DNA of 52,601 nucleotides, from the sequence record SRR33789315_138, one strand, 5' to 3'. Under the pieces are notes generated by a model that was not told where the DNA came from, did no database searches, and saw only the letters and a program-made list of their open reading frames with translations. Positions 7,894-42,877 of the stretch are shown piece after piece. Positions within the stretch are counted from its first letter, which is position 1; each line of letters starts with the position of its first letter. Position numbers and translations under genes: made by a program.

Positions 7894-9171
7894 TCAATGA
7901 AATTGTTCACTTTCTGTAGATCCTACAAGTGCTTGTGTACTTGAGTTTCCAGCAGTAATGATATTTTGTACTTCATCATAATATCCTGTTCCAACAAATG
8001 CTTGGTGTTTTACAGCTTCAAAACCTTGATCTTGTAAAGAAAATTCTCTTTGCTGTAAAGAACTATATCCAGCCATCCCGTTTTCTTTATACGCTTTACT
8101 TAATTCGAACATACTCGTATTAAGTGCATGAAAACCAGCAAGTGTAATGAACTGAAACTTGAATCCTAAATCGGCTAGATTTTCTCTAAAAGTTTCCATT
8201 TCTGTTTGGCTTAATCGTGCTGCCCAGTTAAAACTTGGCGAGCAGTTATAGGCTAATAATTTTCCAGGAAATTCTGCGTGTATAGCTTCAGCAAATTGGC
8301 GTGCTTCTTCCAGACTAGGATAAGAAGTTTCCATCCAAAGCAAATCTGCATAAGGTGCATAGCTTAAACCACGGCTTATTGCTTGATCGATTCCGTTTTT
8401 CACATAAAAGAAACCTTCATTACTTCGTTCTCCAGTGACAAAAGCCATATCTGTCTCATCTATATCACTTGTTATCAAATTAGCTGCATTTGCATCTGTT
8501 CTTCCTATTATAATTGTAGGAACATCCATTACATCTGCAGCAAGTCTTGCTGAAATTAGTTTATTTACAGCTTCTTGAGTAGGCACAAGTACCTTTCCTC
8601 CAAGATGACCACATTTTTTTGCACTACTTAATTGATCTTCAAAATGAACACCTGCTGCTCCCGCACGAATCATAGATTTCATCAACTCATAAGCATTTAG
8701 GTTTCCACCAAAACCAGCTTCGGCATCTGCTATAATAGGCACTAACCAGTCCTTTTGATTTTCACCGCTAATGTGATGGATCTGATCTGCACGTAAAAGC
8801 GCATTATTAATTTTTTCAACCACTAAAGGGACAGAATTTGCAGGATAAAGACTTTGATCTGGATACATCTCGTTAGACATATTTGCATCTGCAGCCACTT
8901 GCCATCCACTCAAATAAATGGCCTCTAGTCCAGCGGCTACTTCTTGTATGGCTTGATTTCCAGTTAATGCTCCCAGTGCAGAAACACAAGGTTGCGAATT
9001 CAGTTTGTCCCAGAATACTTGAGCACCTCTACGGGCTATACTATACTCGATTCTGTAGTTGCCACGCAATCTTAGTACATCTTCTGGTGTATAGGTGCGT
9101 GTAATTCCAGCCCATCTTGGGTTTGTATCCCAATCTTTCTGGATTTTGCTAATAATTGCTTCTTGGCTCAT
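7894..9171 (-). CDS. aceA: Isocitrate lyase (short type)
   Basis: KKCGH signature, [20 protein letters not shown]. Confidence 0.97.
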
Positions 9172-9207
9172 ATTTCAAGATTAAAAAAAGTTACTAATTG
9201 ATTTTTA

Positions 9208-10806
9208 TTATATTAATTTATAGGCATCTAGCGTAAGGAATTCCTTAAGCTCTTTAGATCTAATTAGGGAGTCAAAAAGCGTTGCGGCTTGTTCTAGTTT
9301 GGGTTTCCAAGTCTCGTTTTGGAGTCCACCATTACGCAATCCTTGTAGTTCATCATCATATAAGTGCTCATATAATTCTTCGGTAAACGGTCTTCCGTCT
9401 TCTAGCACTACTGCTTTATGTAACCACTGCCAAAGCTGGGTTCTTGATATTTCTGCTGTAGCGGCATCTTCCATTAAATTAAATATGGCAGCAGCTCCAT
9501 TTCCAGAAAGCCATGCAGACATATATTGTATACCTACATTAATATTTTTTCGCACTCCTTTTTCGGTAATGGTACCTTGAGGAATAGCTATTAATTCTTC
9601 TGGAGTTATGTTTAGCTCATCGCGCTTTACATCTATCTGGTTAGGTTTTGGCATATACTCGTTAAATATTTCCATAGCTACAGCTACCAGGCCTGGATGT
9701 GCAACCCAAGTACCATCGTGCCCATCTGTTACTTCGCGTAATTTATCTGCACGCACTTTGGCAAAAGCTTCTTCATTTGCTTCATCATCACCTTTAATAG
9801 GAATTTGAGCCGCCATTCCGCCCATGGCATGTACGTTTCTTTTGTGACAGGTTTGTATTACTAATAAAGCATAAGCTCGCATAAATGGAACAGACATCGT
9901 TACCTGATCTCGATCTGGAAAAACAAAACCAGATTGATTTCTAAATCGTTTGATAAACGAAAAAATATAATCCCATCTCCCACAGTTTAATCCGGCAGAA
10001 TGTTCTTTAAGTTCAAATAGTATTTCATCTAGTTGAAAACTGGCCAATATGGTTTCTACCAAAACCGTAGCCTTTATAATTCCATTAGGAATACCCATAT
10101 ACTGCTGTGCAAATACAAACACGTCATTCCACCAGCGTGCTTCTGTATAGTCTTCTAATTTGGGTAGATAGAAATAAGGAGCACTTCCTCTACGCATAAG
10201 CTCAAAAACATTATGAAAAAAATACAACCCAAAATCTACCAAAGAACCACTTATAGGCTCGCCATTTATAAGAATATTCTTTTCTTCTAAGTGTAATCCT
10301 CTAGGTCTTACCATTAAGGTCGCTATCTCATCATTGAGCTTGTAAAACTTTTTTTGAGTAGGATATCCAAAGGTTATTTTACGTCTAACAGCATCATATA
10401 AATTAATCTGACCGTTAACAACGTTCTCCCAAGAAGGCGAGTTACTATCTTCAAAATCTGCCATAAAAACTTTGGCACCAGAATTAAGCGCATTAATAAT
10501 CATTTTACGCTCAACAGGTCCTGTTATTTCTACCCTACGATCTTTTAAGTCTTCTGGAATAGGTGCCACTACCCAATCTCCAGAACGTATATATTCGGTT
10601 TCAGTTGGAAATTGAGGTTTCCATCCTGCATCAAGTTTTGCTTGACGTGCTTCGCGAGCAAGCAATAAATCTTTTCTACGTACATCAAATTTTTGATGCA
10701 ATTCATAAATAAAACTTAGGGCTGCATCACTAACAATCATACGCATCACCCCGTTCATTTCAGCTTTAATAGCAATTTTCTTTAAGTTAACATAGCTGGT
10801 TTCCAT
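9208..10806 (-). CDS. aceB: Malate synthase A
   Basis: [40 protein letters not shown]; start uncertain (ATG at 10806 preferred). Confidence 0.95.
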
Positions 10807-10843
10807 ACTTATATGATTTTGTTTGGTCAAATGTATAAAAGCA

Positions 10844-10885
10844 TTTTTTACAAAACAAGCGAACGTTCGCTTTTTTTGTAAAAAA
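10844..10885. promoter_or_regulatory. 42-bp near-perfect palindrome, candidate operator
   Basis: TTTTTTACAAAACAAGCGAAC|GTTCGCTTTTTTTGTAAAAAA, 1 mismatch in 21 bp, in the divergent aceB/regulator gap. Confidence 0.6.
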
Positions 10886-10928: not shown

Positions 10929-12428
10929 ATGAAGAAAAAACAGCTTACAGACGAGCAAGTACGCCGTATCTTTGGACTCAAGCTCCAGCAAATTCGCACA
11001 GAAAATGGGCTCTCTCTTTTTGGGTTATCTAAACTAACTGGTCTTAGTAAAAGTTATCTCAATGAGATAGAACGCGGAAAAAAATACCCAAAACCAGATA
11101 AAGTTGTACTTCTAGTTCAGGCGCTAAATACTTCCTATGATGAATTGGTGAGTATGAAATTAGAGGGTCGCATGGCTCCGCTTAGCGACATTATACAAAG
11201 TGGCATTTTAAAAGATATACCTCTCGATTTATTCGGAATTGAAGAAGCAGATATTATTGATATCATCGCAGATGCTCCGCAAAAAGTTTCTGCTTTTATC
11301 ACAACCATGTTTGAAGTTGCTCGTAATTATGATGTAACCAAAGAAAATTTTTACCTAGCCGCCCTACGCAGTTATCAAGAAAGTCAAGGTAACTATTTTG
11401 AAGATATCGAGCAAGAAGTAAGAGCTTTTGCGACCAAATTTCAATTAGACCTCTCACAAAAAATTAAATCACAGGAATTAATTGATATTCTAAAACAAGA
11501 ATTTGGGTATACACTTGATTTCATTTCGTTTAGAGAAATAGATTACCCTAGAGAAATACGCTCTATATACGTCCCACATAGCAAAAAACTATTAATAGCA
11601 GATTCTGTTTCAGAACAACAACGCGTATTCATTTTAGCAAAAGAATTAGGTTTTGCACAGTTAAAAATTACAGAAAGACCACTCACGTTTACTTGGATTA
11701 AGTTTGAAAGTTTTGAGGATGTACTTAATAATTTTAAAGCTTCCTATTTTGCAGGTTCTTTAATTATTCCAGAAAAAAACCTCGTTCAGGATGTAGCTAC
11801 TTGGCTGCAAAGTGATACTTGGAATCCTGACGTTTTTCTTGAAATGATGTTTAAATACACAGATTCTGCAGAAACCTTTTTTCAACGTCTCACCAATATT
11901 TTGCCCAGACATTTTGGATTAAAAGAGCTTTTCTTTCTACGTTTAACCTATTCTCAAGGATCTACTTTCCCAGACTTAAATAAAGAATTGCATCTAGCTA
12001 GAAACCATCAGCCACATGCTATAAAAAGTCTAGAACATTACTGCCAGCGCTGGATAAGCACAGATATCTTAAAAAACCCGCTGCTTTATCCTGAACAAAA
12101 AGAAATTCGTACCGGAATACAGCGTAGTTTATACCAAACAGGTGAGGAATATATCATCATTACCGCCAGTAATGCCGATCCTTTTGCTGAAGGCAGCACA
12201 AGAAGTGTTTGCATTGGCATCTTACTTTCAACTAAACAAAAAAAGAAAATCGGGTTTCGTACAGACCCTAAAATACCCGTGCAAACGGTAGGTGTAACTT
12301 GTGAGCGTTGTGCAATTGAAGATTGCACCGTACGTGCCGCACCGCCCAATATCTACTTAGAACAGAAAAAAAATATTGAAATCGAAAAAAAAGTGTACGC
12401 TTTAATCCGTCAAAATAAATCAGGTTAA
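10929..12428 (+). CDS. XRE-family regulator of RamB/PrpR/ScfR type (HTH + peptidase-like domain + C-terminal Cys cluster)
   Basis: N-terminal HTH (LSKSYLNEIERGK), degenerate HExxH (AKELGF), C-terminal TCERCAIEDCTVRAAPP; divergent from aceBA. Confidence 0.85.
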   Translation: MKKKQLTDEQVRRIFGLKLQQIRTENGLSLFGLSKLTGLSKSYLNEIERGKKYPKPDKVVLLVQALNTSYDELVSMKLEGRMAPLSDIIQSGILKDIPLDLFGIEEADIIDIIADAPQKVSAFITTMFEVARNYDVTKENFYLAALRSYQESQGNYFEDIEQEVRAFATKFQLDLSQKIKSQELIDILKQEFGYTLDFISFREIDYPREIRSIYVPHSKKLLIADSVSEQQRVFILAKELGFAQLKITERPLTFTWIKFESFEDVLNNFKASYFAGSLIIPEKNLVQDVATWLQSDTWNPDVFLEMMFKYTDSAETFFQRLTNILPRHFGLKELFFLRLTYSQGSTFPDLNKELHLARNHQPHAIKSLEHYCQRWISTDILKNPLLYPEQKEIRTGIQRSLYQTGEEYIIITASNADPFAEGSTRSVCIGILLSTKQKKKIGFRTDPKIPVQTVGVTCERCAIEDCTVRAAPPNIYLEQKKNIEIEKKVYALIRQNKSG

Positions 12429-12489: not shown

Positions 12490-13731
12490 ATGGATTACAG
12501 AACAGATGAAATTATTGCCAGAATTGAAGAATTAAGCACCATTAGCGATTCAAAAGAATGTCTTTCCCGCTACTTTGGTACCAATGCGCATAACAAAGCG
12601 AGCCGTTTGTTGATTAAATGGATGAATGAGGCTGGGCTTCAGGTTACTTATGATAACATTGGTAACGTGCGTGGTGTATTGCACAGCACCAATAAAAATG
12701 CAAAATATTTGGTCATTGGTTCGCATTACGATACCGTTTTTAATGCCGGAAAATACGATGGTCCTTTAGGACTCATTATGGGTATTGAGATTGCAAAAAA
12801 ATGCATCGAGAATCAAAAAGAACTTCCTTTTCACCTGATGATCGCTGGATTTACTGACGAAGAAGGTGGTCGTTTTAATACCGCTTATTTAGGAAGTAGC
12901 GTGCTAGCAGGATCTTTTGATAAAAATTGGCTTACGCGAAAAGATAAAGACGGGATTACACTTGAAGAGGTTATTAAAGAAGCTATCGGGAATCCTTCAA
13001 AAATTGATGGTGATGCCATTCCAGCCGAAGATTGGTTGGGCTATTTTGAAATTCATATCGAGCAAGGCCCTGTACTTTGTGAAACCTGTCAGCCGGTTTG
13101 TCTGGTAAGTAGTATCGCAAGTCAAACCCGTATAGAAATCTGTTGGGAAGGCATTGCCGGTCACGCAGGGACTTCGCCTATGAACTTACGCAGCGATGCG
13201 CTTTGCGCCGCGGCAGATTTTATTAGCACTATTGAAAATCTTGGGCAATCACATCAAGAAAAATTGGTCGCTACCGTGGGGAAATTGAATGTATTACCCA
13301 ACAGTTCTAATGTCATTCCGGGTTTTGTCTATCACAGTATCGATATACGAAGTGAGGATGAAGCTTTTTTAAACCAAATGGTTGAAGAATTAGAAACCAA
13401 AGGAAAAGAAATAGCGGCAAAAAGAAATATCAAATTTTCTTGGAAACTCATGCAGACCAATCCGGCCGTGCGTTGTGATAACCAACTCAATATTGCCTTG
13501 CAAAAAAGCATCCAACAAGCCGGAATAGACAGTTCGTTAGCCATTGTGAGCGGTGCGGGTCATGACGGCGTGATGATTTCAAAAGTTGCGCCCATTTCTA
13601 TGCTTTTTGTACGGTGCAAAGAAGGTGTAAGCCACAACCCTGCAGAATTTACAGAACCAGAAGATATCAAAGCTGCCCTTGCGGTTTGCGATAATTATAT
13701 AAACGAATTGACAACCCTTTTTCAAGAATAA
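12490..13731 (+). CDS. allC: Allantoate amidohydrolase (M20 family)
   Basis: GSHYDTV..AGKYDGPLG, EIHIEQGPVL, AGHAGTSPM, SGAGHDG, SHNPAE; directly upstream of allE. Confidence 0.8.
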   Translation: MDYRTDEIIARIEELSTISDSKECLSRYFGTNAHNKASRLLIKWMNEAGLQVTYDNIGNVRGVLHSTNKNAKYLVIGSHYDTVFNAGKYDGPLGLIMGIEIAKKCIENQKELPFHLMIAGFTDEEGGRFNTAYLGSSVLAGSFDKNWLTRKDKDGITLEEVIKEAIGNPSKIDGDAIPAEDWLGYFEIHIEQGPVLCETCQPVCLVSSIASQTRIEICWEGIAGHAGTSPMNLRSDALCAAADFISTIENLGQSHQEKLVATVGKLNVLPNSSNVIPGFVYHSIDIRSEDEAFLNQMVEELETKGKEIAAKRNIKFSWKLMQTNPAVRCDNQLNIALQKSIQQAGIDSSLAIVSGAGHDGVMISKVAPISMLFVRCKEGVSHNPAEFTEPEDIKAALAVCDNYINELTTLFQE

Positions 13732-13735
13732 ACCT

Positions 13736-14497
13736 ATGCAAAATATACCACTTACGTCGCTTTCAAGAACGGTAGTAGCCCACGATCACGCACTCATTAC
13801 CGGCGACGGATTTGTAAACAGCAAAATTCCAAATTGGGATAATTGCGAAGTTAATGTGGTGATTAATGAAGCGATGGGTGCAGATTTCTGTCAGCTTTTG
13901 GTAACACTAGAAACGAGTGCTGTACTAAAAGGTACAACCGAGCAAGCACAGATTTTTTTCTATATTATAGAAGGTTCTTGTAAAATCAACATTGATGGTC
14001 AAGAAAGTGAACTTGCTACTGGATCTTATGTGTATATCCCTATCGGTAAAAAATATCACTTTGATCAAGCCGAAGCGAACACCAAAATTCTCACTTTTCA
14101 TAAGGTATATGAAGATCTGGAAGGTCATGAAATACCCGAAGTTTTATTCGGTTCCAGAACTTCTGTTGAGCAAACACTGTTCAATAATGATCCTAATTTA
14201 TTAATGCAGAACCTATTGCCAGACCAGACAGATCTTGCTTTTGATATGGCTGTCAATATTTTCACTTACGCGCCTGGAGCCGTGCTTCCTTTCGTAGAAA
14301 CCCACATTATGGAACACGGCCTTTTATACCTAGAAGGACAAGGCATTTACCGTCTGGCAGACCAATGGTATCCCGTAAAAAAGGGTGACGCGATCTGGAT
14401 GGCGCCTTATTGTCCGCAGTGGTTTGGGGCTTTTGGCACCGAGCCCGCCGTGTATATTTATTATAAAAATGTAAACCGTTTCCCCACTATCATCTAA
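13736..14497 (+). CDS. allE: (S)-ureidoglycine aminohydrolase (bicupin)
   Basis: ETHIMEHG..LEGQGIYRL, IWMAPYCPQW, YIYYKNVNR. Confidence 0.9.
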   Translation: MQNIPLTSLSRTVVAHDHALITGDGFVNSKIPNWDNCEVNVVINEAMGADFCQLLVTLETSAVLKGTTEQAQIFFYIIEGSCKINIDGQESELATGSYVYIPIGKKYHFDQAEANTKILTFHKVYEDLEGHEIPEVLFGSRTSVEQTLFNNDPNLLMQNLLPDQTDLAFDMAVNIFTYAPGAVLPFVETHIMEHGLLYLEGQGIYRLADQWYPVKKGDAIWMAPYCPQWFGAFGTEPAVYIYYKNVNRFPTII

Positions 14498-14507
14498 AGC
14501 CAAGTCT

Positions 14508-15725
14508 ATGCAGATACATGAAGAACTTAAAACTTTGGCCGGATTTTCCGCTAGCGAAAACCCTTCAGTAACCCGAATTTTATATACCCAAAACGATCTG
14601 GAAGCGCGCGCGTATTTTATTTCGCTTTGCAAAAAATTAGATCTTTCCGTTCGCGTAGATCCTATCGGGAACACCTTTGTGCGCTGGGAAGGCTCGCAGC
14701 CTGAACTTTCTGCCGTGGGCACCGGTTCACATATCGATGCTATTCCGCTTTCTGGGCAATATGATGGTACGGTTGGGGTTTTTGGTGGTTTGGAAGCTAT
14801 CAGGTATCTAAAAAATTTAGGATACCAACCCAAACGTTCTATTGAGATTTTATTGTTTACTGCAGAAGAACCCACGCGTTTTAAAATTGGCTGTCTGGGA
14901 AGCCGGATGTTAGGCGGACAATTATCCCCAGAAAAAGCTGAAAAACTTACAGACAGTGAAGGTCTTTTTCTTAATCCCGTTAGAACCGAAGCTGGGTTTA
15001 AAGGAAACTTGGAAGATGTTGCACTGCCTAAAGAGTACTACCATGCTTTTGTAGAATTACATATTGAGCAAGGTCCTATTCTGGATGCGGAAGGTATTGA
15101 TATCGGGATTGTGACCAAAATTGCAGCACCCAGTACGTTGCGTGTAAAACTCGTAGGACGTGGTGGTCATGCAGGTGCTGTTTTGATGCCCGCACGCCGG
15201 GATGCAGGTGTTGCCGGTGCAGAAATTATGCTGGCTGTTGAACGCATCGTTATTGAATCAGACAGTCCAGATACCGTAGGAACTACAGGTATTTTTGACA
15301 TTTTGCCTAGAGCTGTAAATAGTATCCCGAAAGAAGCCTATCTGGAAATTGACTTGCGCGACACCAATCCGGAAACCCGTGACAAAGCCCTAAATGATCT
15401 TCAGGAAGAAATAAAAGCCATAACCCAACGCCGAAACATAGAAGTTACTGTAGAAATGGTCAACTGTGACCCACCAGCTATTTGCGACACCCATTTAGTT
15501 GATGTTATCGAAAAAATGGCAGATGAGCTAGGCTATTCTTCAAAAAAGATGGTGAGCAGAGCCTATCACGATTCCTTATTTATGGCACAAGTCTGCCCTA
15601 CTACAATGATTTTTATCCCGTGTAAAGATGGAGTGAGTCACAGACCGGACGAATACAGTTCACCGGATCAAATCGAAAAAGGGGTGAAAACTTTAGCACT
15701 TACCTTGCAGGAATTAGCTGGGTAA
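14508..15725 (+). CDS. M20 amidohydrolase, probable plant-type ureidoglycolate amidohydrolase (UAH)
   Basis: VTRILYT, GSHIDAIP.SG.YDG, EEPTRF.I.CLGSR and SRAYHDSLFMA motifs recalled from plant UAH; follows allC-allE. Confidence 0.75.
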   Translation: MQIHEELKTLAGFSASENPSVTRILYTQNDLEARAYFISLCKKLDLSVRVDPIGNTFVRWEGSQPELSAVGTGSHIDAIPLSGQYDGTVGVFGGLEAIRYLKNLGYQPKRSIEILLFTAEEPTRFKIGCLGSRMLGGQLSPEKAEKLTDSEGLFLNPVRTEAGFKGNLEDVALPKEYYHAFVELHIEQGPILDAEGIDIGIVTKIAAPSTLRVKLVGRGGHAGAVLMPARRDAGVAGAEIMLAVERIVIESDSPDTVGTTGIFDILPRAVNSIPKEAYLEIDLRDTNPETRDKALNDLQEEIKAITQRRNIEVTVEMVNCDPPAICDTHLVDVIEKMADELGYSSKKMVSRAYHDSLFMAQVCPTTMIFIPCKDGVSHRPDEYSSPDQIEKGVKTLALTLQELAG

Positions 15726-15874: not shown

Positions 15875-16168
15875 TTGAGGGTTATTGCAAAACGGACATT
15901 GCGAGAATTTTGGGAACAAAACCCAGATAGTGAACAGCAATTATTGTCTTGGTATCAGGAAACATCCAAAAAAGAATGGGAAAGCCCAAACGAAATCAAA
16001 GAACAATACGCATCAGCAAGCATTCTAAAAAATAGTCGCGTTGTTTTCAATATTTGCGGAAACAAATACCGATTGATTGTGGAAATCAACTTCCCAAGAA
16101 AATGGTTTTTTGTTCGATTTATTGGAACTCATAAAGAATATGACAAAATTGACGCAAACAACATCTGA
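15875..16168 (+). CDS. higB: Type II TA toxin, HigB (RelE-like) family
   Basis: MRVIAKRTLREFW, RVVFNICGNKYRLIV, RFIGTHKEYDK; TTG start. Confidence 0.92.
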   Translation: MRVIAKRTLREFWEQNPDSEQQLLSWYQETSKKEWESPNEIKEQYASASILKNSRVVFNICGNKYRLIVEINFPRKWFFVRFIGTHKEYDKIDANNI

Positions 16169-16169
16169 T

Positions 16170-16526
16170 ATGGAAATTAAAGCAATTAAAACAGAAGAAG
16201 ATTACAACCAAGCTTTAGAACGCTTGGGAAAAATTTTTCACGTAAAAGTAGACACTCCTGAAGGCGATGAGGCAGAAATCCTTTCTATTTTGATTGAAAA
16301 ATTTGAGGACAAACATTATCCAATTGGAATGCCTGACCCAATTGAGGCAATCAAATTCCGAATGGAACAGATGAATATGAAACAAAAGGATTTGGCTGAA
16401 GTTATGGGATTCTCAAGTCGAGTAAGTGAAATTTTAAACAAAAAGCGCAAACTGACTTTGGATATGATAAGAAAACTAAATACTACGCTTCATATTCCGA
16501 CTGATGTTTTAGTTCAAGATTATTAA
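16170..16526 (+). CDS. higA: Type II TA antitoxin, HigA family (HTH)
   Basis: IKTEEDYNQAL, PDPIEAIKFRMEQ, SRVSEILNKKRKLTL; ATG at 16170 directly after the toxin stop. Confidence 0.92.
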   Translation: MEIKAIKTEEDYNQALERLGKIFHVKVDTPEGDEAEILSILIEKFEDKHYPIGMPDPIEAIKFRMEQMNMKQKDLAEVMGFSSRVSEILNKKRKLTLDMIRKLNTTLHIPTDVLVQDY

Positions 16527-16636: not shown

Positions 16637-17749
16637 CTACAACAACTCCCGCAAAGCGCCTACTAGCATATTTACGTGATTTTCGGTGCAGCTTTCGCCC
16701 ATAATCCCTATACGCCAAATTTTTCCAGCAAAATCTCCCAGTCCGCCACCAACTTCAATATTAAATTCATTCAGTAATTGACCGCGTAACTTGGCTTCAT
16801 CTTGTACACTTTCCGGTAAAAAAACCGAATTTAAATTAGGTAATCGATAATCTTCAGCTACTAAATAACTAAAACCTAATTCCTCCAGTTGACTTTTTAA
16901 ATATTCATGCACTGCATAATGACGTTCCCAACGTTTTTCCAAACCTTCTTCCAAAACCAAATTTAATGCTTCGTGTAGCGCATAGATCGAAGAAACAGGT
17001 GCGGTATGGTGATAGGCTCGTTTGGCACCAGCCCAATAATTCTTGACCAAATTCAGGTCTAAAAACCAACTTTGAACGGGCGTTTTTCGATTTTCCAATG
17101 CGGCTACTGCTCTAGGTGAAAAACTTACCGGTGACAATCCCGGAGGCGCACTGAGGTTTTTTTGAGTTCCGGTATAGATGGCGTCAATTCCCCATTCATC
17201 TACCTTCAGCGGCACACCACAATAGGAAGTCACAGCATCCACTACCAGTAATGAACCTGCTGCGTGTACAATTTCACTAATCTTATCCAAAGGTTGCAAA
17301 GCGCCTGTAGAGGTTTCGGCATGTACCAAAGCAACCATTTTAGGATTGGGACAGGTTTCTAATGCTTCTTCCATCTGTGCTTCGGTAGTAACTTCTCCCC
17401 AAGGCGTGATCACTTTATGTACTTTGGCACCACAACGTTCTGCAATAGCAGCCATTCTTCCACCAAAAACACCATTGATACATATAATACATGCATCTCC
17501 CGGTTCTAAAAGATTGACCAAACAGGTTTCCATCCCAGCACTTCCCGGCGCAGAAACAACAAACGTTAATTGGTTTTGAGTCAAAAATGTTTGTTGCACC
17601 ATATCTTTAACCTCATCCATCATTTTTACAAAATGGGGATCAAGATGTCCTATTAACGGACTGGCCATGGCTTTTAAAACACGTGGATGTGCATCTGAAG
17701 GGCCCGGGCCCATTAAAATACGTTTGGGAGGATTAAATGTATAACTCAT
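16637..17749 (-). CDS. Class V PLP aminotransferase, alanine/serine-glyoxylate aminotransferase-like
   Basis: LMGPGPS, GHLDP, VHAETSTG, TGTQK (PLP Lys), YHHTAP. Confidence 0.85.
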   Translation of the reverse strand: MSYTFNPPKRILMGPGPSDAHPRVLKAMASPLIGHLDPHFVKMMDEVKDMVQQTFLTQNQLTFVVSAPGSAGMETCLVNLLEPGDACIICINGVFGGRMAAIAERCGAKVHKVITPWGEVTTEAQMEEALETCPNPKMVALVHAETSTGALQPLDKISEIVHAAGSLLVVDAVTSYCGVPLKVDEWGIDAIYTGTQKNLSAPPGLSPVSFSPRAVAALENRKTPVQSWFLDLNLVKNYWAGAKRAYHHTAPVSSIYALHEALNLVLEEGLEKRWERHYAVHEYLKSQLEELGFSYLVAEDYRLPNLNSVFLPESVQDEAKLRGQLLNEFNIEVGGGLGDFAGKIWRIGIMGESCTENHVNMLVGALRELL

Positions 17750-21384: not shown

Positions 21385-22251
21385 TTAACTCCCACGATAG
21401 GTTGTATATCCGTACGGATTAATCAATAACGGAATGTGGTAATGGCTATCGTCTGTAACAGTGAAGTTAATGGCCACTTCGGGATAAAATCCGTTGGTTT
21501 CACTTTTGCGGAAATAAGTATCCGTATCAAAAACCATCAAGTAAGAACCGGTCTTTAAAATACGTCCCGGCGGAAGCACATCTGCAATCCGGCCATCTGC
21601 ATTGGTAATTCCAGTGCTGAGGGGTTTCCACGTATTATCGCGCATCCCTTTTAAGGTAATATGCATTTTAGCTGCAGGAACTCCTATAGAAGTATCCAAT
21701 GCATGTGTTGTAAGTTGGCTGCCCAACTTTATTTCGCTTAAACCTTCGACCAATTTCGCTAAGCGAATTACAGTAATTTTATGTTGTTCATTCATTGCCA
21801 CAAAGATTTCGTCTTCCGGCTCATGTTGCATTCTCTTTTGAACAATCGCCAACATTTCTTCGGCTGATTTTCCGCTGGCGCTTACGATAAAAATATAACC
21901 AAATCGTGCTTCATAAGCCGTATTGGCATCCGCCAAAGCTTGAATAGTTTCGGTATTGGCTTCAGTAACTTGGGCTTGTTCGTTATTTGCCCAATCCTGT
22001 GTATGCGCAAATTTTTTCGTCAGGCTAGCTACATCCCCAATCTTGGGATGCCCGGTAAATGCTTCTTTATAATCAGAAATATCGCAGGTTTCATACCAGA
22101 TTTCTGCGCTTTTGGTTACCAAATCCTCCAAAGAGGAAAAAGGACGTTTTTCCAACATATTATGAATCAATGTTTTGGAAACACAACACGTTTCCAGCAT
22201 GGAAAAAGCTTCGTTTTCGGGAATGGTATTGAGTTGCTCTAATGTTATCAT
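21385..22251 (-). CDS. Bifunctional OHCU decarboxylase (UraD) / 5-hydroxyisourate hydrolase (UraH) fusion
   Basis: N-terminal GHPKIG, EQ, YEARFGYIFIVSASG; C-terminal LTTHALDT, DGR, HYHIPLL..YTTYRGS. Confidence 0.92.
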   Translation of the reverse strand: MITLEQLNTIPENEAFSMLETCCVSKTLIHNMLEKRPFSSLEDLVTKSAEIWYETCDISDYKEAFTGHPKIGDVASLTKKFAHTQDWANNEQAQVTEANTETIQALADANTAYEARFGYIFIVSASGKSAEEMLAIVQKRMQHEPEDEIFVAMNEQHKITVIRLAKLVEGLSEIKLGSQLTTHALDTSIGVPAAKMHITLKGMRDNTWKPLSTGITNADGRIADVLPPGRILKTGSYLMVFDTDTYFRKSETNGFYPEVAINFTVTDDSHYHIPLLINPYGYTTYRGS

Positions 22252-22253
22252 CG

Positions 22254-23660
22254 CTATTCTTTTGGTGCGCCCTGACTGTACCAGCAGTTGATCATATCGC
22301 GTTCTTCTTGGGTGATTCCGGTCTGGTTGTTATTAAACGGCATCGCCTTGCTCACCACAACTTGCTGGAAAATATTATTCCGTAAGTTATAAATTTGGTC
22401 TGCGGTATCAAACATAATTCCCTTGGGAGCAACTGTCCAGACGGCATCACTTGGGTTTTGAGAATGACACACCATACACCTTCTATTGATTACGGCATGC
22501 ACTTCTGCAAAAGAAACGTCTTCGGTGCAATTTTCATATTTGGGAGGTGATGGCGCCGTAGCAAAAGCTACTGCAAACAAAATCAACACGCCCACAGGCA
22601 TCACCCAAACCGAAAGTTGTCCTTTTTCCCGCAAATTAAGGTAATGCTTCACGCCTGCACTTCCCAATGTAATTCCCAAAAGAACCAACCATTGATGGGT
22701 ATTCCCGTACGTACTGGGAAAGTGGTTGCTAATCATCGTAAACAACACCGGAAGCGTCAAATAATTGTTGGTATAGGAGCGTAAAAAAGCGGCTTTCCCG
22801 TCTTCGGGATTAGGTGGTAACCCTTTTTTTGCCGCAGCGACCATACGTTTTTGGCCAGGAATAATAATAAAGAACACATTCCCGGCCATTAAGGTGGCGA
22901 TCATCGCTCCAAAATGGATAAAAGCGGCTCTTCCGCTAAACACGTGCGCATAAAACCAAGCAAAAAATACCAACATTAAGCTTATGGAAACCAAGAAAAC
23001 AATGCCGTTTTTGGAAAGTTTTTTACAGATAAAATCATAGAGATACCACGCAAAAATCAGCGAAAGGATACTTATGGTAATCGCCGTCGTCGGTGTAATA
23101 TCCAGTACATTGGGATCAATCAAAAAGGATTTTGAATTGAAATAATAGACAATCATCAACAAGCTAAAACCCGAGAGCCAGGTAAAATAGGCTTCATATT
23201 TAAACCAGTGTAAATGCTTCGGTATTTCTTTAGGAGCAATCTTATATTTTTCAATATAATAAAAACCGCCACCGTGCACAGCCCACAGGTTTCCGGCGAG
23301 TTCATCTCGAATATTTTCGGTTCGGTTTAAGGAATTTTCCAGAAAAACGAAATAAAAAGAAGCTCCGATCCACGCAATCCCAAAAGTGATATGCATCCAA
23401 CGCATACCCAGATTAATCCATTCCATAAAATGGCTTTCCCAAATCGTCCCTTTCAGAAAAATATAGACAAGAACCAGTCCGCAGATGGTAGAAAAAATGA
23501 TAAATACGTAAAACCAATTCTGGATTTGGGAATAGGATTCGGCCGTCTCCTCATCGTCTTTTGCTTTCGCTTGATTGATCCAGTGATGCAATTTATATGT
23601 ACCCGCAACACCGATGATAAAAATCATCAGCCAGATAATAAGAAATGCGCTTGGAATCAT
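22254..23660 (-). CDS. puuD: Membrane urate hydroxylase PuuD with C-terminal cytochrome c
   Basis: RWMH..GIAWIGASFYF, WAVHGGGFY, LHWFKYEAY, NNYLTLPV..MISNH, CMVCH heme motif. Confidence 0.9.
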   Translation of the reverse strand: MIPSAFLIIWLMIFIIGVAGTYKLHHWINQAKAKDDEETAESYSQIQNWFYVFIIFSTICGLVLVYIFLKGTIWESHFMEWINLGMRWMHITFGIAWIGASFYFVFLENSLNRTENIRDELAGNLWAVHGGGFYYIEKYKIAPKEIPKHLHWFKYEAYFTWLSGFSLLMIVYYFNSKSFLIDPNVLDITPTTAITISILSLIFAWYLYDFICKKLSKNGIVFLVSISLMLVFFAWFYAHVFSGRAAFIHFGAMIATLMAGNVFFIIIPGQKRMVAAAKKGLPPNPEDGKAAFLRSYTNNYLTLPVLFTMISNHFPSTYGNTHQWLVLLGITLGSAGVKHYLNLREKGQLSVWVMPVGVLILFAVAFATAPSPPKYENCTEDVSFAEVHAVINRRCMVCHSQNPSDAVWTVAPKGIMFDTADQIYNLRNNIFQQVVVSKAMPFNNNQTGITQEERDMINCWYSQGAPKE

Positions 23661-23706: not shown

Positions 23707-25053
23707 TTATCGAAACAGCAGATTACCTGTGTTCAATTGTTGAATAGCTCCCTCTTTTACGACCCACTCCCCGTTGACAAAGGTATGGAGGACGTTTCCG
23801 TAAAGGGTTTCTCCCAAATACGGACTCGCCTTATGCCGGTGTTGAATGCTTTCTTCAGTAACCAAAAAGCGTTCTTTATCATCCCAAACGGTAATGTCTG
23901 CATCATAATCAACCGCCAGTTTTCCTTTTTGTTTCAATCCTAAAAAAGCCGCAGGATTTGAAGTGAGCAACGGAATCAATTTTGCTAACGAAAGCCCATA
24001 TTCCTGCGCTTTGGTGACCAGAACCGGAAGCGTAAACTGCAATCCGGCAATTCCGCCCCAAGCGGTAAAGAAATTTCCGCTTTCTAATTGTTTGATGTCT
24101 GGCGGGGCCGGTGAATGGTCTGAAGCCAAAAAATTCATTTCGTCCTTCAAAATCATTTCCCAGAGTTGATCATTATTGGCCTTCTCACGAATGGGCGGCG
24201 CACATTTGTAAATGGGCGAAGCATCTGGAATTTCTTCGGCATTGAAATACAAGTAATGCGGACAGGTTTCTACGGTTAATTTATCGGTTTCTGCCTTGCG
24301 TTGTACAATACGCTCAATCCCAGCCGAAGCGGATAAATGCACAATGTGCACCTTAATATCATATTTTTTCTGAATATCAAGCGCCAAATCAATGGCATTG
24401 GTTTCCCATTGTTGTGGCCGTGAAGCCATATATTCTTGATATGATTTTGGGTTATTTACTTCGGGAACATGTGCATCACTCAATTCGCAATGCAATAACA
24501 ACGGAATATCATATTGCTTTAAAACAGGCGCGATTTGCTCGAGATCTTCGCGGGTCACATTCGGAAATTCATCAATCCCAGAATGTGTCAAAAAACCTTT
24601 TATACCAAAAACTCCGGCTTGAATCAAGCCTTCTATTTCCTCCAAATTATCGGGAATCACACCGCCATAAAATCCGCAATTCACGTGTAATTTTCCTACT
24701 GAAGCTTCTTGCTTTTCGCGGAATGCTTCCGCAGTAGTTGTCACCGGACTCGCATTGAGCGGCATTTCGATTAACGTAGTCACACCACCAACTGCAGCAG
24801 CTTTTGTGGCGGTATCAAAACCTTCCCATTCGGTTCTTCCCGGTTCGTTAATATGCACGTGGGCATCGATAATTCCCGGCATCACGATGAGATCGCCATA
24901 ATTCAGAAAAGGAAGTCCCACGCGTTCACTCTTTCCTTCGGCAATCCCTACAATCTTACTATTGCGCACGTGAATACTGGCTTCGGCAAACGCTCCATCC
25001 ATAAAACACCGCTTGCTGTAGATAACAAATTCGTTTTTCAATCTACTTACCAT
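23707..25053 (-). CDS. allB: Allantoinase
   Basis: DAHVHINEPGRTEWEGF, EMPLNASP, ETCPHYL, KCAPPIR, SDHSP. Confidence 0.93.
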   Translation of the reverse strand: MVSRLKNEFVIYSKRCFMDGAFAEASIHVRNSKIVGIAEGKSERVGLPFLNYGDLIVMPGIIDAHVHINEPGRTEWEGFDTATKAAAVGGVTTLIEMPLNASPVTTTAEAFREKQEASVGKLHVNCGFYGGVIPDNLEEIEGLIQAGVFGIKGFLTHSGIDEFPNVTREDLEQIAPVLKQYDIPLLLHCELSDAHVPEVNNPKSYQEYMASRPQQWETNAIDLALDIQKKYDIKVHIVHLSASAGIERIVQRKAETDKLTVETCPHYLYFNAEEIPDASPIYKCAPPIREKANNDQLWEMILKDEMNFLASDHSPAPPDIKQLESGNFFTAWGGIAGLQFTLPVLVTKAQEYGLSLAKLIPLLTSNPAAFLGLKQKGKLAVDYDADITVWDDKERFLVTEESIQHRHKASPYLGETLYGNVLHTFVNGEWVVKEGAIQQLNTGNLLFR

Positions 25054-27367
25054 ACAAACTCATTAAGACTTTTTCAGGCGTCATTGGGGCGTGAAATTTG
25101 GGTTTATAATCAGGATTAAACGCTTTTATAGCATTTTGCAAAGCGAAATAAGCACCAATGCCATACATCAATGGTGGTTCGCCAACAGCTTTAGATTTTA
25201 AAATCGCCATCTCATTGCCTTCCGTTTCCAGCGGAAGCACTTCCACTACTTTTGGCACCGAATAAATATCTGGCACTTTATAGGTAGATAAGGCATTAGA
25301 AAGTAATCTGCCATCCGCATTATAAGCGATTTCCTCTACCGTCATCCAGCCCAGACCTTGCACCAAAGCACCTTCAACCTGACCCAAATCAATGCCTTTA
25401 CTCATACTTATACCGTAATCGTGCACAATTTTTACCGAATCAAATGCATAAGTGCCGCGCATACAATCTACCGTCGTGGTGATAATGGCGGTGCCGTAAA
25501 CGTGATAAGCAAACGGATGTCCTTTTTCTTTAGTCTTGTCAAAATGAATTTCGGGTGTGGCATAATGCGCGTTTTCACTTAAGCTTACGCGAAAAAGCAT
25601 CGCTTTGGTGATCATTTCGTTCCAGGAAAGTTCTGTTTTGCTTCCATTTAAACACACCCATTCATCTTTAAATGCAACCGAATCCAAATCTGTTTTTAGT
25701 TCATCTGCTGCTAAAACTTTTAAGCGTTCCAAAAGGGAATTACAGGCTTTAAGCAAGGCTTTTCCATTTAAATCTGCTGTAGAACTAGCCGCTGAAGGCG
25801 AGGTATTGGCCACGCGTGTGGTATTGGTAGTTTCGATTTTTACCTTCTCATGGGATATCGAAAATACATCTGCAGCAATCTGCAACAATTTGGTATTTAC
25901 ACCCTGCCCCATCTCGACTGCCGCGGTGCTCACGCCTACGCTTCCATCTTGATAAATATGCACTAACGCACGCGCATGGTTCATAGGCGTATTGGTGAAC
26001 GAAATCCCAAACGTAATGGGCATCAAGGCCAGCCCTTTTTTAGAATCGGTATGTGTTGCATTGAATACCTCGACCTCTTTTTCGAGGGTTTCTAAATCAA
26101 ATTTTTCTTTGGCCGAAAACCAAGAATTTTCAGCTTCAACCTGTTTGGCAATTTGACCATAAGAAAACACATCATTTTCTCTCAATAAGTTTTTTTCCTG
26201 TATTTCCCGCGGAAGAATCCCCAGTTCATCGGCTGCTTTTGCGATAGCAGATTCTATCACAAACATCCCTTGTGGCCCACCAAAACCACGGAAAGCGGTA
26301 TTGGGCGGAAGGTGTGTTTTGCAACTATAAACCGCTGTTTTTACATTTTCTACGTAATAACTGTTGGTCGCGTGAAAGAGTGTGCGCTCGGCAATTGCCG
26401 GCGAAAGATCTGCCGCAGCACCAGAATTCTGTAAATATTCAGCTTCAAAAGCGAGGATTTTTAAGTCTTTGGACAACCCAATTTTAAAGGTGCTTTCATA
26501 CGGATGGCGTTTGCCGGTCATCCGTAAATCATCATGCCGATTCAAAATTAATTTAACCGATTGATTCATATGTTTCGCGCCTAGCGCAGCCATTACAGAC
26601 CACGGAGTTGCCTGATCTTCTTTCCCCCCAAAACCACCACCCAAACGCGTCACATCAACTTCAATTTTATGCATCGCAACACCTAACACGCGAGCTGTCA
26701 TTTTCTGAACTGCTGTTGGCCCTTGCGTGGAGGAAGTAATACGAATATTTCCGTTTTCTAAAGGCTCGGCATACGCACCTTGCGCTTCTATATATAAATG
26801 TTCTTGCCCGTTTGAGAAGGTTTCGCCTTCAAAAATATGGGCGCAATCTATAAAAGCTTTTTCCGTATCGCCTAACTTAAAATGACGCGGTTTATTGATA
26901 AAACTTCCTTGTGCTTTGGCTTCTTTGGCCGTGGTAATCACTGGAAGTTCTTCGATTTCAATTTTAATTAATTTACGGGCTTTTCTGGCGATTAATTCCG
27001 TTTCTGCTAAAATCAAAGCAATGGGCTGACCCCAGAAATGAACCTCATCTTCTGCAAAAAGGGGTTCGTCTAATAAAATTCCGCCAATCTGATTATCGCC
27101 TGGAATATCTTTATAGGTCAAAATAGCCGCTACGCCGGCAACTTGCAAGGCTTTTGAGTAGTCTATATTTATTATTTTTCCGTGTGCTTTTGGTGAATCA
27201 AAAACCACAGCATGCAACGTTCCTTGTCGCACATTGACATCGTCCACATAAATCGACTCGCCTCGTAAATGGGTAAACGAATCGATATTTTTCACACTTT
27301 GTTTCACCGAAGTTTTATCCTCTTCCTTCAGCAAAAAATCAATCATTACTTTATCCTTCTCCATCAT
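25043..27367 (-). CDS. xdhB: Xanthine dehydrogenase molybdopterin-binding subunit
   Basis: RLGGGFGGKE, TAFRGFGGPQG, EMGQG, SKAVGEPP. Confidence 0.93.
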   Translation of the reverse strand: MMEKDKVMIDFLLKEEDKTSVKQSVKNIDSFTHLRGESIYVDDVNVRQGTLHAVVFDSPKAHGKIINIDYSKALQVAGVAAILTYKDIPGDNQIGGILLDEPLFAEDEVHFWGQPIALILAETELIARKARKLIKIEIEELPVITTAKEAKAQGSFINKPRHFKLGDTEKAFIDCAHIFEGETFSNGQEHLYIEAQGAYAEPLENGNIRITSSTQGPTAVQKMTARVLGVAMHKIEVDVTRLGGGFGGKEDQATPWSVMAALGAKHMNQSVKLILNRHDDLRMTGKRHPYESTFKIGLSKDLKILAFEAEYLQNSGAAADLSPAIAERTLFHATNSYYVENVKTAVYSCKTHLPPNTAFRGFGGPQGMFVIESAIAKAADELGILPREIQEKNLLRENDVFSYGQIAKQVEAENSWFSAKEKFDLETLEKEVEVFNATHTDSKKGLALMPITFGISFTNTPMNHARALVHIYQDGSVGVSTAAVEMGQGVNTKLLQIAADVFSISHEKVKIETTNTTRVANTSPSAASSTADLNGKALLKACNSLLERLKVLAADELKTDLDSVAFKDEWVCLNGSKTELSWNEMITKAMLFRVSLSENAHYATPEIHFDKTKEKGHPFAYHVYGTAIITTTVDCMRGTYAFDSVKIVHDYGISMSKGIDLGQVEGALVQGLGWMTVEEIAYNADGRLLSNALSTYKVPDIYSVPKVVEVLPLETEGNEMAILKSKAVGEPPLMYGIGAYFALQNAIKAFNPDYKPKFHAPMTPEKVLMSLYGK

Positions 27368-28773
27368 GCTATCATTTCGGTTAACGTAAATTTTTCGGGA
27401 AACAGCTCTGTAAAATGGGCAAAAAACAACTGTCTTGCCAGTAAACGCTTATAATCGCTGCTTCCTCGTACATCGCTTATCGGGGCAATTTCATTTTGTA
27501 AAACAGTATTGGCTTCTTGAATCGTTTGCACCGTAAAGGGCTTCCCTATTAAGAAATCACGGGTTTTAAACAAGTATTTAGGAATGGGAGCCACGCCGCC
27601 CATTGCCAAATGAACTTCGCTGATTACCTCCTCTTTAATCGAAATCTGTATTGCGGCATTTACGGTGGCAATGTCTAAATGCATCCGTTTAGAAACTTTT
27701 TCAAAATTGAAATACGTGTCCTTACATGGCAATTTAAACGTGATTTCTTTGATGATCTCGCCTTCTTTTAAATCCAGTGTTTTATATCCTTTATAAAAGG
27801 TATTTAATGGTAAAATCCGCTCTTCTCCCAACACATCCAGCAAGGTTATTTTGCTATTCAGCGCCAAGAAAAATCCAGTCATATCGCCTATGGGCGAAGC
27901 ATTTACAAAATTACCGCCAAGCGAAGCCATATTCCGGATAGGTTCTGAGGAAACGAGTTTTAAATGTTTTCTCAAATTTGGAAAAAAGGTGATTAGTTCA
28001 GGATGATTCCAAAGTTCGGTGACGGTAGTACCGGCTCCAATCGTGCATTGCTCTTCTGAAATTATAATGCCTTTTAAACTGTCGTTTGGATCTAATAATT
28101 GAACCGTTTCTTCCACAAGATCATCTGCTTTTTGCACATACAAATCGGTGCCACCGGCGACAATTTTTGCACTGCGATGTGGCAGTCGCTGTTGGTGTAA
28201 ATGCTTCAGTCGTTCTGGAATTTCTTTAAAATAGTCAGGAATGAATTTGTTTTTGATCAGCCAATCCAACGAAATCTCTTTTTCTTCGGCTTCCAGCTTT
28301 TCGCAAACTTCCATCCCAGCCTTTTCGATAGATTTATAACCCGTACAGCGGCAAATATTACCACTTATAGCACGCAAAGCATGCTCCGCATCTTTCGGAT
28401 GTTCTGAAATCGCAAAACCCGTAAGTGCCACCACAAAACCCGGCGTGCAGAATCCGCACTGGGTTGCAAAATTGGCTTTCATGGCTTGCTGCGCTTGGGT
28501 CAGGCTATTTTTTAAATTGGTTCCTTCGACCGTTACAATATGCATGCCGTGCGCGTTTCCCAAGGGGGAAATACAAGAAGTAATGGTTTTATAATCCAGT
28601 TTTCCGTTTTCGCTTAACGAACCTACCAACACGGTACACGCACCACAATCTCCTTCACGGCAACCAATTTTGGTGCCCGTCAACCGCTTTTCATACCGCA
28701 CAAAATCCAACAGGGTCATTCCTGATTGGGCTTCGGTTTGTATGGTTTTATTGTTTAAAATAAATGTTATCAT
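27364..28773 (-). CDS. xdhA: Xanthine dehydrogenase Fe-S/FAD subunit
   Basis: GCREGDCGACTV, QCGFCTPG, GNICRCTGY, AGGTDL; likely start is the ATG at 28773. Confidence 0.93.
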   Translation of the reverse strand: MITFILNNKTIQTEAQSGMTLLDFVRYEKRLTGTKIGCREGDCGACTVLVGSLSENGKLDYKTITSCISPLGNAHGMHIVTVEGTNLKNSLTQAQQAMKANFATQCGFCTPGFVVALTGFAISEHPKDAEHALRAISGNICRCTGYKSIEKAGMEVCEKLEAEEKEISLDWLIKNKFIPDYFKEIPERLKHLHQQRLPHRSAKIVAGGTDLYVQKADDLVEETVQLLDPNDSLKGIIISEEQCTIGAGTTVTELWNHPELITFFPNLRKHLKLVSSEPIRNMASLGGNFVNASPIGDMTGFFLALNSKITLLDVLGEERILPLNTFYKGYKTLDLKEGEIIKEITFKLPCKDTYFNFEKVSKRMHLDIATVNAAIQISIKEEVISEVHLAMGGVAPIPKYLFKTRDFLIGKPFTVQTIQEANTVLQNEIAPISDVRGSSDYKRLLARQLFFAHFTELFPEKFTLTEMIA

Positions 28774-28919
28774 AATTCTTTTCCTCGCCAGTATCCTATT
28801 CCTATGCTTCGCTTGCAATTAGACAAGATACAAATTTTCATAAAAAGTGTTTCGATAGTAGGTATTAGAATATAAAATCTAAAAAAATATAAGGTTATAG
28901 GTTAATTTACTTCCTATAC

Positions 28920-41695: not shown

Positions 41696-41724
41696 ATTTA
41701 TAACCTTTTCTTATATTGAAACCC

Positions 41725-42504: not shown

Positions 42505-42877
42505 AGTGACCTATGAATTTGCCGTGATTAGAATTGTTCCCAAGGTTGAACGGGAAGAATTTATAAATGTTGGGGTCATCCTTTTTTCTAAATCTAAAAA
42601 ATACCTCGGGATAAAATATAAAATTGATAAAAACCGAATTGGAATCTTTTCTGAAGAAATTGATGTTGATTTTTTAAATAAATACCTCTGCGCTTGGGAA
42701 TGGGTTTGCGCTGGAGATCCACAAGGAGGACGTATCGGAAAACTAGAATTGGCAGACCGGTTTAGGTGGTTAACGGCTTGCCGAAGCACCATTATTCAAA
42801 GTTCTAAAACGCATCCGGGTTTATCTAACAATCCTCAAGAAACGTTGGAAAATTTATTTAAGCTATATGTTTTATAG
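42494..42877 (+). CDS. DUF3037 domain protein
   Basis: YEFAVIRIVPKVEREEFINVGVIL, RFRWLTA.RSTIIQ.S..HPG; overlaps the kinase stop. Confidence 0.85.
   Translation: MQDKVTYEFAVIRIVPKVEREEFINVGVILFSKSKKYLGIKYKIDKNRIGIFSEEIDVDFLNKYLCAWEWVCAGDPQGGRIGKLELADRFRWLTACRSTIIQSSKTHPGLSNNPQETLENLFKLYVL

Follow-up and report, generated by a model that had tools for sequence, protein, structure and literature searches.

A bacterial ortholog of plant ureidoglycolate amidohydrolase in an allC-allE operon, predicted to end a urea-free ureide route

Introduction

The (S)-ureidoglycolate amidohydrolase (UAH) of Arabidopsis thaliana (At5g43600, EC 3.5.1.116; PDB 4PXB/4PXC/4PXE) is an M20 enzyme that acts after AAH and UGlyAH in the ureide pathway. 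The all regulon of Escherichia coli comprises AllB, AllC, and AllE steps followed by the lyase AllA or the dehydrogenase AllD. Bacillus PucF-PucG and Klebsiella HpxK-HpxJ constitute a ureidoglycine aminotransferase route.

Plant UAH has been described as strictly specific, and the features that distinguish it are a tyrosine versus a glycine at the specificity site and the QxR motif found in AllC (review PMC13751858). UAH is still described as a plant enzyme in one source (PMC10120013) and is assigned to plants and bacteria in a passage of a review (PMC6320678). In a further study, plant UAH falls in one clade with bacterial homologs (Yue 2012, PMC3493653, Fig. S7). UAH (KEGG K18151, EC 3.5.1.116) is listed in a gut-microbiome KO table, and in JGI several bacterial relatives are called ‘ureidoglycolate amidohydrolase’, an annotation made by homology only. 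The literature we searched, which covered only part of the key papers, yielded no assay of a bacterial UAH-clade member.

Results

Two M20 genes flank allE

We analysed 52,601 nucleotides of DNA (hereafter the window; sequence record SRR33789315_138). The host is a Bacteroidota bacterium and probably a flavobacterium, since the nearest named relatives point there. Three plus-strand open reading frames carry the system of interest:

12490..13731, + strand: allC, allantoate amidohydrolase (M20), 413 aa; assigned by NF006775 (459 bits), an AllC clade (100/100), and motifs
13736..14497, + strand: allE, (S)-ureidoglycine aminohydrolase (UGlyAH; cupin), 253 aa; TIGR03214, 299.8 bits
14508..15725, + strand: UAH ortholog, predicted (S)-ureidoglycolate amidohydrolase (M20), 405 aa; PDB 4PXE, 441 bits; UAH clade 100/99

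The coordinates confirm the layout given in an earlier note on this DNA, in which allE sits between two M20 genes, 4 nt from the first and 10 nt from the second. The two M20 proteins share 30% identity. The three genes are presumably co-transcribed; promoter and terminator scans gave matches at chance level only.

The first protein contains SQTR at residues 211-214 (QxR = Q212-T213-R214), SGAGHD at 354, and Gly357 at the specificity site. Its score against NF006775 (PRK09290.2-5) is slightly below the 479-bit cut-off, and it reaches 221 bits against TIGR03176 (cut-off 598). It shares 29% identity with E. coli AllC, which belongs to a different subfamily; the window AllC thus appears to be of the NF006775 type and not the E. 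coli type. In our tree it joins the AllC proteins of other purine operons, some of which exceed the NF006775 cut-off. No identifiable plant AAH was among the homolog-search matches listed for comparison with it.

The AllE protein clears the TIGR03214 cut-off of 200 bits and falls far under that of the bifunctional UGLYAH2 model (NF040771, 166.7 bits, cut-off 350). Its PDB matches include 1SFN (175 bits) and 4E2Q (154 bits).

The third protein is an ortholog of plant UAH

Arabidopsis UAH (4PXE) is the best PDB match of the third protein (E 3e-131), with a margin of 200 bits over the top non-UAH structure (241 bits). Structures of carbamoylases and beta-alanine synthases score 147-241 bits. Identity to Populus UAH is 51%. 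The sole NCBIfam cut-off that the protein passes is that of the broad family TIGR01879.

The motifs VTRILYT, GSHIDAIP (from residue 73), EEPTRFKIGCLGSR (from 120), and SRAYHDSLFMA (from 350), which the earlier note had listed along with the SGAGHD of AllC, are all found in the translations. Alignment to 4PXE matches the two-metal and substrate residues of the Arabidopsis enzyme. We take that site, in roles and most of its numbering, to be H138, D149, E183, E184, H254, H290, N340, R353, H424, and H448. The third protein has H75, D86, E120, E121, H185, Q188, H221, N271, R284, Y353, H354, and H378, and all 12 are kept in 42/42 orthologs. Y353 is the equivalent of Arabidopsis Tyr423, and A206-A207-P208 (AAP) stands where QxR would be. 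The marks of an allantoate amidohydrolase, QxR and the specificity-site glycine, are therefore absent, replaced by AAP and tyrosine, and these determinants split the two M20 genes of the operon as expected for AllC and UAH. An S-x-A-Y-H-D sequence is present in 120/120 nearest homologs.

The tyrosine is not restricted to the UAH clade. Sister M20 proteins contain SGAYHD; this residue is necessary but not unique.

The third protein thus shares the M20 subfamily, clade, and site residues (the Tyr423 equivalent included) of Arabidopsis UAH. It differs in being bacterial, operon-encoded, and without the plant N-terminal extension.

In the careful tree, the UAH clade holds 33 of the 56 rows, among them the window protein and proteins from Salix, Chara, Spirogloea, and Pyropia, which stand in for Arabidopsis UAH (itself not a row). 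This clade lies apart from the AllC rows and from unassigned hydantoinase/carbamoylase rows, in a sample that includes neither HpxK nor an assayed beta-ureidopropionase or L-N-carbamoylase. In a second tree, to which Populus and Dovyalis proteins were added, the clade holds 48/85 rows (SH-aLRT 99). Grouping with carbamoylases or beta-alanine synthases, the outcome named in the earlier note as fatal to its reading, is seen neither in the trees nor in the PDB scores.

Within the UAH clade, the window protein sits in a Bacteroidota subclade that is sister to Verrucomicrobiota/Acidobacteriota and not beside the plant branch. This position of the window protein, nested within bacterial sequences, leaves a transfer of UAH from plant to bacterium unsupported. 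Sequences that look like eukaryotic AllC-AllE-UAH fusions were discounted, since they are probably bacterial operons that gene finders joined into one gene.

Distribution and gene context of UAH orthologs

The association with ureide genes extends beyond the window. Of the 57 loci whose flanks are long enough, 54 have an allE gene that ends at most 1 kb upstream of the UAH ortholog, and 31/34 have allC no more than 4.5 kb away. The metagenome UAH loci are mutually related, and counts over them are not independent. Among 201 Deinococcota genomes, AllE is present in 41/41 with UAH vs 62/160 without it. Neither the window nor any of 88 UAH loci matched AllA, AllD, or Gcl, and a weak AllA-family match occurs in only 1 of the 41 UAH-bearing Deinococcota genomes. 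In other phyla, the allC-allE-UAH arrangement is seen frequently.

UAH is seldom found in Bacteroidota: not one of 400 drawn genomes contains the gene, and only the genome at the centre of the draw does. The closest Bacteroidota relatives of the third protein have generic database names only. Together, PDB matches, residues, trees, and gene context uphold the AllC, AllE, and UAH-ortholog assignments.

A predicted xanthine-to-glyoxylate gene set

The rest of the window encodes further predicted components of purine catabolism:

7894..10830, - strand: aceB (malate synthase A) and aceA (isocitrate lyase); TIGR01344 at 789 bits and NF011645 at 732 bits, each exceeding its cut-off
10929..12428, + strand: XRE-family regulator, weakly RamB-like; PF01381; NF038139, 52 bits (cut-off 700)
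16637..17749, - strand: class-V aminotransferase, alanine-glyoxylate type; 1VJO, 383 bits
17886..18668, + strand: xdhC, xanthine dehydrogenase maturation factor; TIGR02964, 198.5 bits (cut-off 161.6)
21385..22251, - strand: uraD-uraH fusion (OHCU decarboxylase and HIU hydrolase); TIGR03180 and TIGR02962 over cut-off in one ORF
22254..23660, - strand: membrane urate oxidase, PuuD-type; PF06181, 409 bits
23707..25053, - strand: allB, allantoinase; TIGR03178, 513 bits (cut-off 358)
25043..28818, - strand: xdhB and xdhA, xanthine dehydrogenase; highest-scoring families TIGR02965 at 772 bits and TIGR02963 at 369 bits, short of their cut-offs of 849.5 and 467

The full purine/ureide system spans ~7.9-28.8 kb, wider than the coordinates of the earlier note. 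The gene set, from xanthine to the glyoxylate sinks, is packed into about 21 kb and appears to specify a complete xanthine-to-glyoxylate route. The three-gene operon forms the lower half of this aerobic purine-catabolism cluster. The regulator gene lies 61 nt upstream of allC, divergent from aceB, and may be tied to the operon. We take the PF06181-matching urate oxidase to be PuuD.

The class-V aminotransferase scores 383 bits against 1VJO vs 262 for 3ISL (PucG) and 250 for 3NNK, and a PucG identity was rejected on these scores. We take 1VJO to be the Anabaena AGT and 3NNK to be HpxJ. Homologs of the aminotransferase occur in 3/88 UAH loci and homologs of aceB in 9/88.

The window shares the AllB, AllC, and AllE steps with the E. 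coli all regulon but shows no match to AllA, AllD, or Gcl and has an aerobic upper pathway with PuuD. Like the PucF-PucG and HpxK-HpxJ systems, it combines an allantoate amidohydrolase with a nearby class-V aminotransferase; it differs in that the aminotransferase is nearer the alanine-glyoxylate type and that AllE and UAH are also present.

In the route that we propose, Xdh, PuuD, UraH/UraD, and AllB would convert xanthine to allantoate. From allantoate, AllC would yield (S)-ureidoglycine together with NH3 and CO2, and AllE would convert (S)-ureidoglycine to (S)-ureidoglycolate and NH3. The UAH ortholog, at its two-metal site and probably with a preference for Mn2+, would then convert ureidoglycolate to glyoxylate, 2 NH3, and CO2. 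Its Tyr353 would occupy the pocket that glycine leaves open for allantoate in AllC. Glyoxylate might pass to malate (through AceB) or to glycine (through the aminotransferase). The AllC, AllE, and UAH steps would thus release all four ring nitrogens as ammonia and none as urea. We consider it very probable that the third gene encodes a bacterial UAH that ends such a urea-free route.

The earlier note called this route urease-independent, which holds for the predicted chemistry but is not consistently reflected in genomes. Across Deinococcota, urease is rarer in UAH genomes (7/41 vs 31/62, Fisher p 8e-4), but within Trueperaceae it is commoner (10/23 vs 6/58, p 0.002), with kinship uncorrected in both comparisons. 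We dropped the anti-correlation as lineage-driven because its direction reverses within Trueperaceae. Neither urease nor AllA was found in two related Chitinophagales MAGs, which may be incomplete.

Trueperaceae operons with allE and UAH but without AllC

In ten Trueperaceae genomes, allE and UAH are retained but AllC was not detected. Eight have the order uraD-uox-uraH-allB-allE-UAH without AllC, several on contigs of 2-4.6 Mb. In G763, G854, G913, and G894, nothing but UAH matches TIGR01879. Where other genes separate allE from UAH, they encode Fic proteins or lack an assignment. Urease is not enriched in the AllC-less genomes (4/10 vs 6/12). In the first five of them, no urea carboxylase was found over cut-off and allantoicase gave no match, in a search whose control was likewise silent.

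These genomes are poorly explained by a strictly ureidoglycolate-specific UAH. One alternative is that the bacterial UAH-clade enzyme is broader and also hydrolyses allantoate (AAH and UAH activity), making AllC dispensable, as in these operons. The gene orders without AllC, several on long contigs, and the sole TIGR01879 matches are consistent with this. So is AllE, which is below the UGLYAH2 cut-off in the five AllC-less genomes tested and whose retention implies a supply of ureidoglycine. UAH, AllE, and then UAH again would form a two-enzyme route for all ureide nitrogen. Against such breadth, the UAHs of the AllC-less genomes keep the tyrosine and have no QxR, and those of the first five show no diagnostic or active-site change relative to AllC-bearing relatives. 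The genomes are also related, so that one or two losses may account for them, and allB is split in G854. The window carries its own AllC, and the plant enzyme is strictly specific (PMC13751858). We therefore regard it as unlikely that the bacterial clade lacks strict specificity and that the AllC-less Trueperaceae UAH cleaves both allantoate and ureidoglycolate, and as quite unlikely that such breadth is the better account of the third gene.

One genome, G938, has a UAH gene without AllE in the genome and without a recognised ureide gene in the 19 kb read, beside a distant allantoinase/dihydropyrimidinase-like gene. That neighbour, the database names of most relatives (‘N-carbamoyl-L-amino-acid hydrolase’ or ‘M20 family metallo-hydrolase’), and the lone TIGR01879 match would suit a generic N-carbamoyl-amino-acid hydrolase or beta-ureidopropionase inactive on ureidoglycolate, but the 441-bit match to Arabidopsis UAH, the placement with plant UAH, and an allE association that holds over several phyla make this identity of the third gene highly improbable.

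Discussion

Our favoured reading, a bacterial UAH at the end of a urea-free route, makes the third protein a further bacterial member of a known family. The earlier note presented a bacterial UAH in operon context as poorly documented; this overstated its novelty, given the clade in Yue 2012 (PMC3493653), the JGI labels, and the frequency of the allC-allE-UAH context in other phyla. Since the family, its bacterial branch, and its chemistry were already known, the gain is confirmation and not surprise.

The AllC-less operons pose a more open question than the window operon. If their UAH does prove broad, the enzyme of the window, whose operon also encodes an AllC, would serve as a natural control and, once assayed, would be the first such bacterial representative of the clade that is the putative source of plant UAH. 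Activity of the third protein on ureidoglycolate, if seen in an assay, would give direct proof of a full urea-free ureide route in bacteria and would correct the generic database labels of its relatives.

A predicted ureidoglycolate amidohydrolase operon

The window encodes what is, on well-supported grounds, a real bacterial operon for ureidoglycolate amidohydrolase (UAH), an activity predicted from sequence. It comprises three plus-strand ORFs with intergenic gaps of 4 and 10 nt, as the earlier note had claimed, and every motif quoted there is found in the translated ORFs.

Genes of the ureide operon
12490-13731, + strand: gene 1, allC (allantoate amidohydrolase), 413 aa
13736-14497, + strand: gene 2, allE (UGlyAH), 253 aa
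14508-15725, + strand: gene 3, UAH ortholog, 405 aa

Genes 1 and 3 had been described as two different M20 proteins. They share 30% identity and thus represent distinct M20 subfamilies rather than a recent duplicate. The top NCBIfam model for gene 1 is NF006775 (459 bits, under the cut-off of 479), whereas the E. coli-type AllC model TIGR03176 scores poorly (221 bits). Gene 2 exceeds the NCBIfam cut-off for TIGR03214 (299.8 versus 200 bits) and falls under that of the bifunctional UGLYAH2 model (166.7 versus 350 bits).

The proposed likeness of gene 3 to UAH holds: among solved structures, Arabidopsis UAH is the top match (4PXE, 441 bits, E 3e-131). Structures other than UAH score at most 241 bits, with E. 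coli AllC at 177 and beta-alanine synthase at 169 bits. Identity to Populus UAH is 51%. Twelve metal- or substrate-site positions, mapped via the 4PXE alignment, are invariant in 42/42 orthologs. The motif S-x-A-Y-H-D is present in all 120 nearest homologs (x is R in 97, Y in 16 and H in 7); the SRAYHD Arg is replaced by Tyr or His in 23 of them, and also in the Chitinophagales loci L001 and L002. Passages of a review (PMC13751858) attribute to Shin 2014 two determinants that separate UAH from allantoate amidohydrolase (AAH): Tyr423 of UAH, where AAH has Gly, and QxR, a motif confined to AAH. At these positions gene 3 has Tyr353 and AAP, that is, the UAH-like Tyr without QxR, and gene 1 has Gly357 and QTR. 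Database searches listed no AAH from plants with which gene 1 might be compared.

Phylogeny and relatives

Our careful tree retains 56 of the 85 rows of an earlier tree, 29 redundant or long-branch rows having been excluded; its rows exclude AtUAH, HpxK and any assayed beta-ureidopropionase. Gene 1 clusters with AllC proteins from other purine operons (100/100). Gene 3 belongs to a clade of 33 rows (100/99) whose eukaryotic members are from Salix, Chara, Spirogloea and Pyropia and whose bacterial members are from Deinococcota, Planctomycetota, Verrucomicrobiota, Acidobacteriota and Bacteroidota. Within this clade it lies inside a Bacteroidota group (100/100) that is sister to Verrucomicrobiota/Acidobacteriota (100/98). 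Its closest named relatives are from Flaviramulus basaltis (76% identity), Chitinophagales MAGs (76%) and Winogradskyella (74%), and several relatives carry the JGI label UAH.

The M20 proteins L011:9983-11218 (from Mitsuokella), P0134 and P0149, which branch as sisters of the UAH clade, contain SGAYHD, and the UAH Tyr is therefore not exclusive to that clade. The Mitsuokella gene lies near allE, one allC-like gene and two allantoinase-like genes. These proteins are possibly a second UAH-like subfamily in anaerobes.

Two ~1000-aa single gene models, P0449 (Nemacystus decipiens) and P0450 (CAK9037423.1), consist of AllC, partial AllE and UAH. Both halves of each group with the planctomycete G665 (100/99 and 100/98), and the two models differ at their junctions, so that fusion of bacterial operons by eukaryotic gene finders is the probable origin.

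Passages of Yue 2012 (PMC3493653) place moss UAH in one clade with green-plant and bacterial homologs and report its acquisition from bacteria. Passages of other sources give the distribution of UAH as plants and bacteria (PMC6320678) or plants (PMC10120013), list K18151 in a microbiome KO table (PMC10166706) or, on bacterial UAH, contain only a citation of Yue (PMC4016543, PMC9667741 and PMC9464200). Our literature search returned no bacterial UAH assay or description of such an operon; other papers or their supplements may cover either.

Conserved gene context

We surveyed 88 UAH loci (8 genomic and 80 metagenomic), many of them related to one another. Where the flank reaches 1.6 kb or more, the allE gene ends within 1 kb upstream of UAH in 54 of 57 loci; allC is no more than 4.5 kb from UAH in 31 of 34 loci with sufficient flank. 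AllA, AllD and Gcl had no match in any of the 88 loci; aceB occurs in nine and an aminotransferase homolog in three.

At an ortholog threshold of E <= 1e-100, UAH is present in 1/401 Bacteroidota genomes (the genome around which the draw was built), 2/301 Planctomycetota genomes (one of them the centre) and 41/201 Deinococcota genomes, each phylum being named after the record title of its centre locus. AllE accompanies UAH in 41/41 Deinococcota, versus 62/160 genomes without UAH. AllC is over cut-off in 36 of these 41, and one has a weak AllA-family match. UAH genomes do not consistently exclude urease. Across Deinococcota, urease is found in 7/41 UAH genomes versus 31/62 AllE-only genomes, and within Trueperaceae in 10/23 genomes with UAH versus 6/58 without (the 81-genome tallies count G932, flagged as unpublished, which matches AllE but not UAH, AllC or urease; no conclusion depends on this genome alone).

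Trueperaceae without detectable AllC

An AllC match is absent in 12 of the 23 UAH-bearing Trueperaceae. Two were dropped: G930, whose allC is divided over two contigs, and G938, which lacks allE and shows no gene recognised as ureide-related across the 19 kb of sequence read. Ten remain (G763, G854, G791, G905, G894, G913, G919, G946, G945 and G944; loci L240-L244, L273-L276 and L278), eight of which encode uraD-uox-uraH-allB-allE-UAH in one stretch. AllC may have been lost recently in these genomes, or a side activity of AllE may cleave allantoate; the first five tested have no UGLYAH2-type AllE and no urea carboxylase. UAH is the sole TIGR01879 (hydantoinase/carbamoylase-family) match in four of the ten and has no active-site change in the first five tested; that it cleaves both allantoate and ureidoglycolate in these operons seems quite improbable.

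A separate M20 clade is represented in Trueperaceae both among AllC-bearing genomes and among those lacking AllC (L253, L264-L266, L269 and L271), five of these loci having SGPLHD.

Purine cluster and predicted pathway

We scanned 24 window ORFs with NCBIfam and 12 with Pfam. The purine genes among them are xdhA, xdhB, allB, a PF06181 urate oxidase, a uraD-uraH fusion and xdhC. The urate oxidase (22254-23660) has ~75 additional N-terminal residues ahead of the domain; the Chitinophagales loci L001 and L002 likewise encode long homologs. An adenosine/adenine deaminase-family gene (34022-35041, NF006850 over cut-off), 5 kb past the cluster, may supply it with hypoxanthine. E. coli AllA, AllD and Gcl queries had no match within the window, nor did urease among the 24 NCBIfam-scanned ORFs.

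Several other elements accompany the cluster. A HigB toxin/HTH antitoxin pair (15875-16526, 34% GC) lies directly 3' of the UAH gene. A HipA-like kinase (PF20613) and an unassigned 285-aa ORF (19672-21353, 27% GC) are inserted in the cluster, and a pair resembling them by eye lies at 41716-42877. The cluster also contains a CDF cation transporter (18678-19553). Among its top NCBIfam matches, all under cut-off, are MamB/MamM and MntE, an exporter of Mn; a tie to Mn-dependent ureide enzymes would be speculative.

Malate synthase and isocitrate lyase genes lie upstream of allC, divergent from an XRE regulator gene whose end lies 61 nt upstream of allC. The region from which aceB and the regulator gene diverge contains a near-perfect ~40-bp palindrome (10845-10885; perfect 16-bp core at 10857-10872), a candidate operator. 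It has no other copy in the window, and none of 279 loci contains its 12-bp centre. The downstream aminotransferase matches alanine-glyoxylate aminotransferase (383 bits) over PucG (262 bits).

Following the plant ureide reactions as outlined in passages of PMC3793230, gene 1 would convert allantoate to ureidoglycine, NH3 and CO2, gene 2 ureidoglycine to ureidoglycolate and NH3, and gene 3 ureidoglycolate to glyoxylate, 2 NH3 and CO2. Malate synthase or the aminotransferase would then consume the glyoxylate. Behind this proposal stand the observed genes, their orthology, their residues and their conserved context. The operon very likely runs a plant-type route from allantoate to glyoxylate through these predicted activities.
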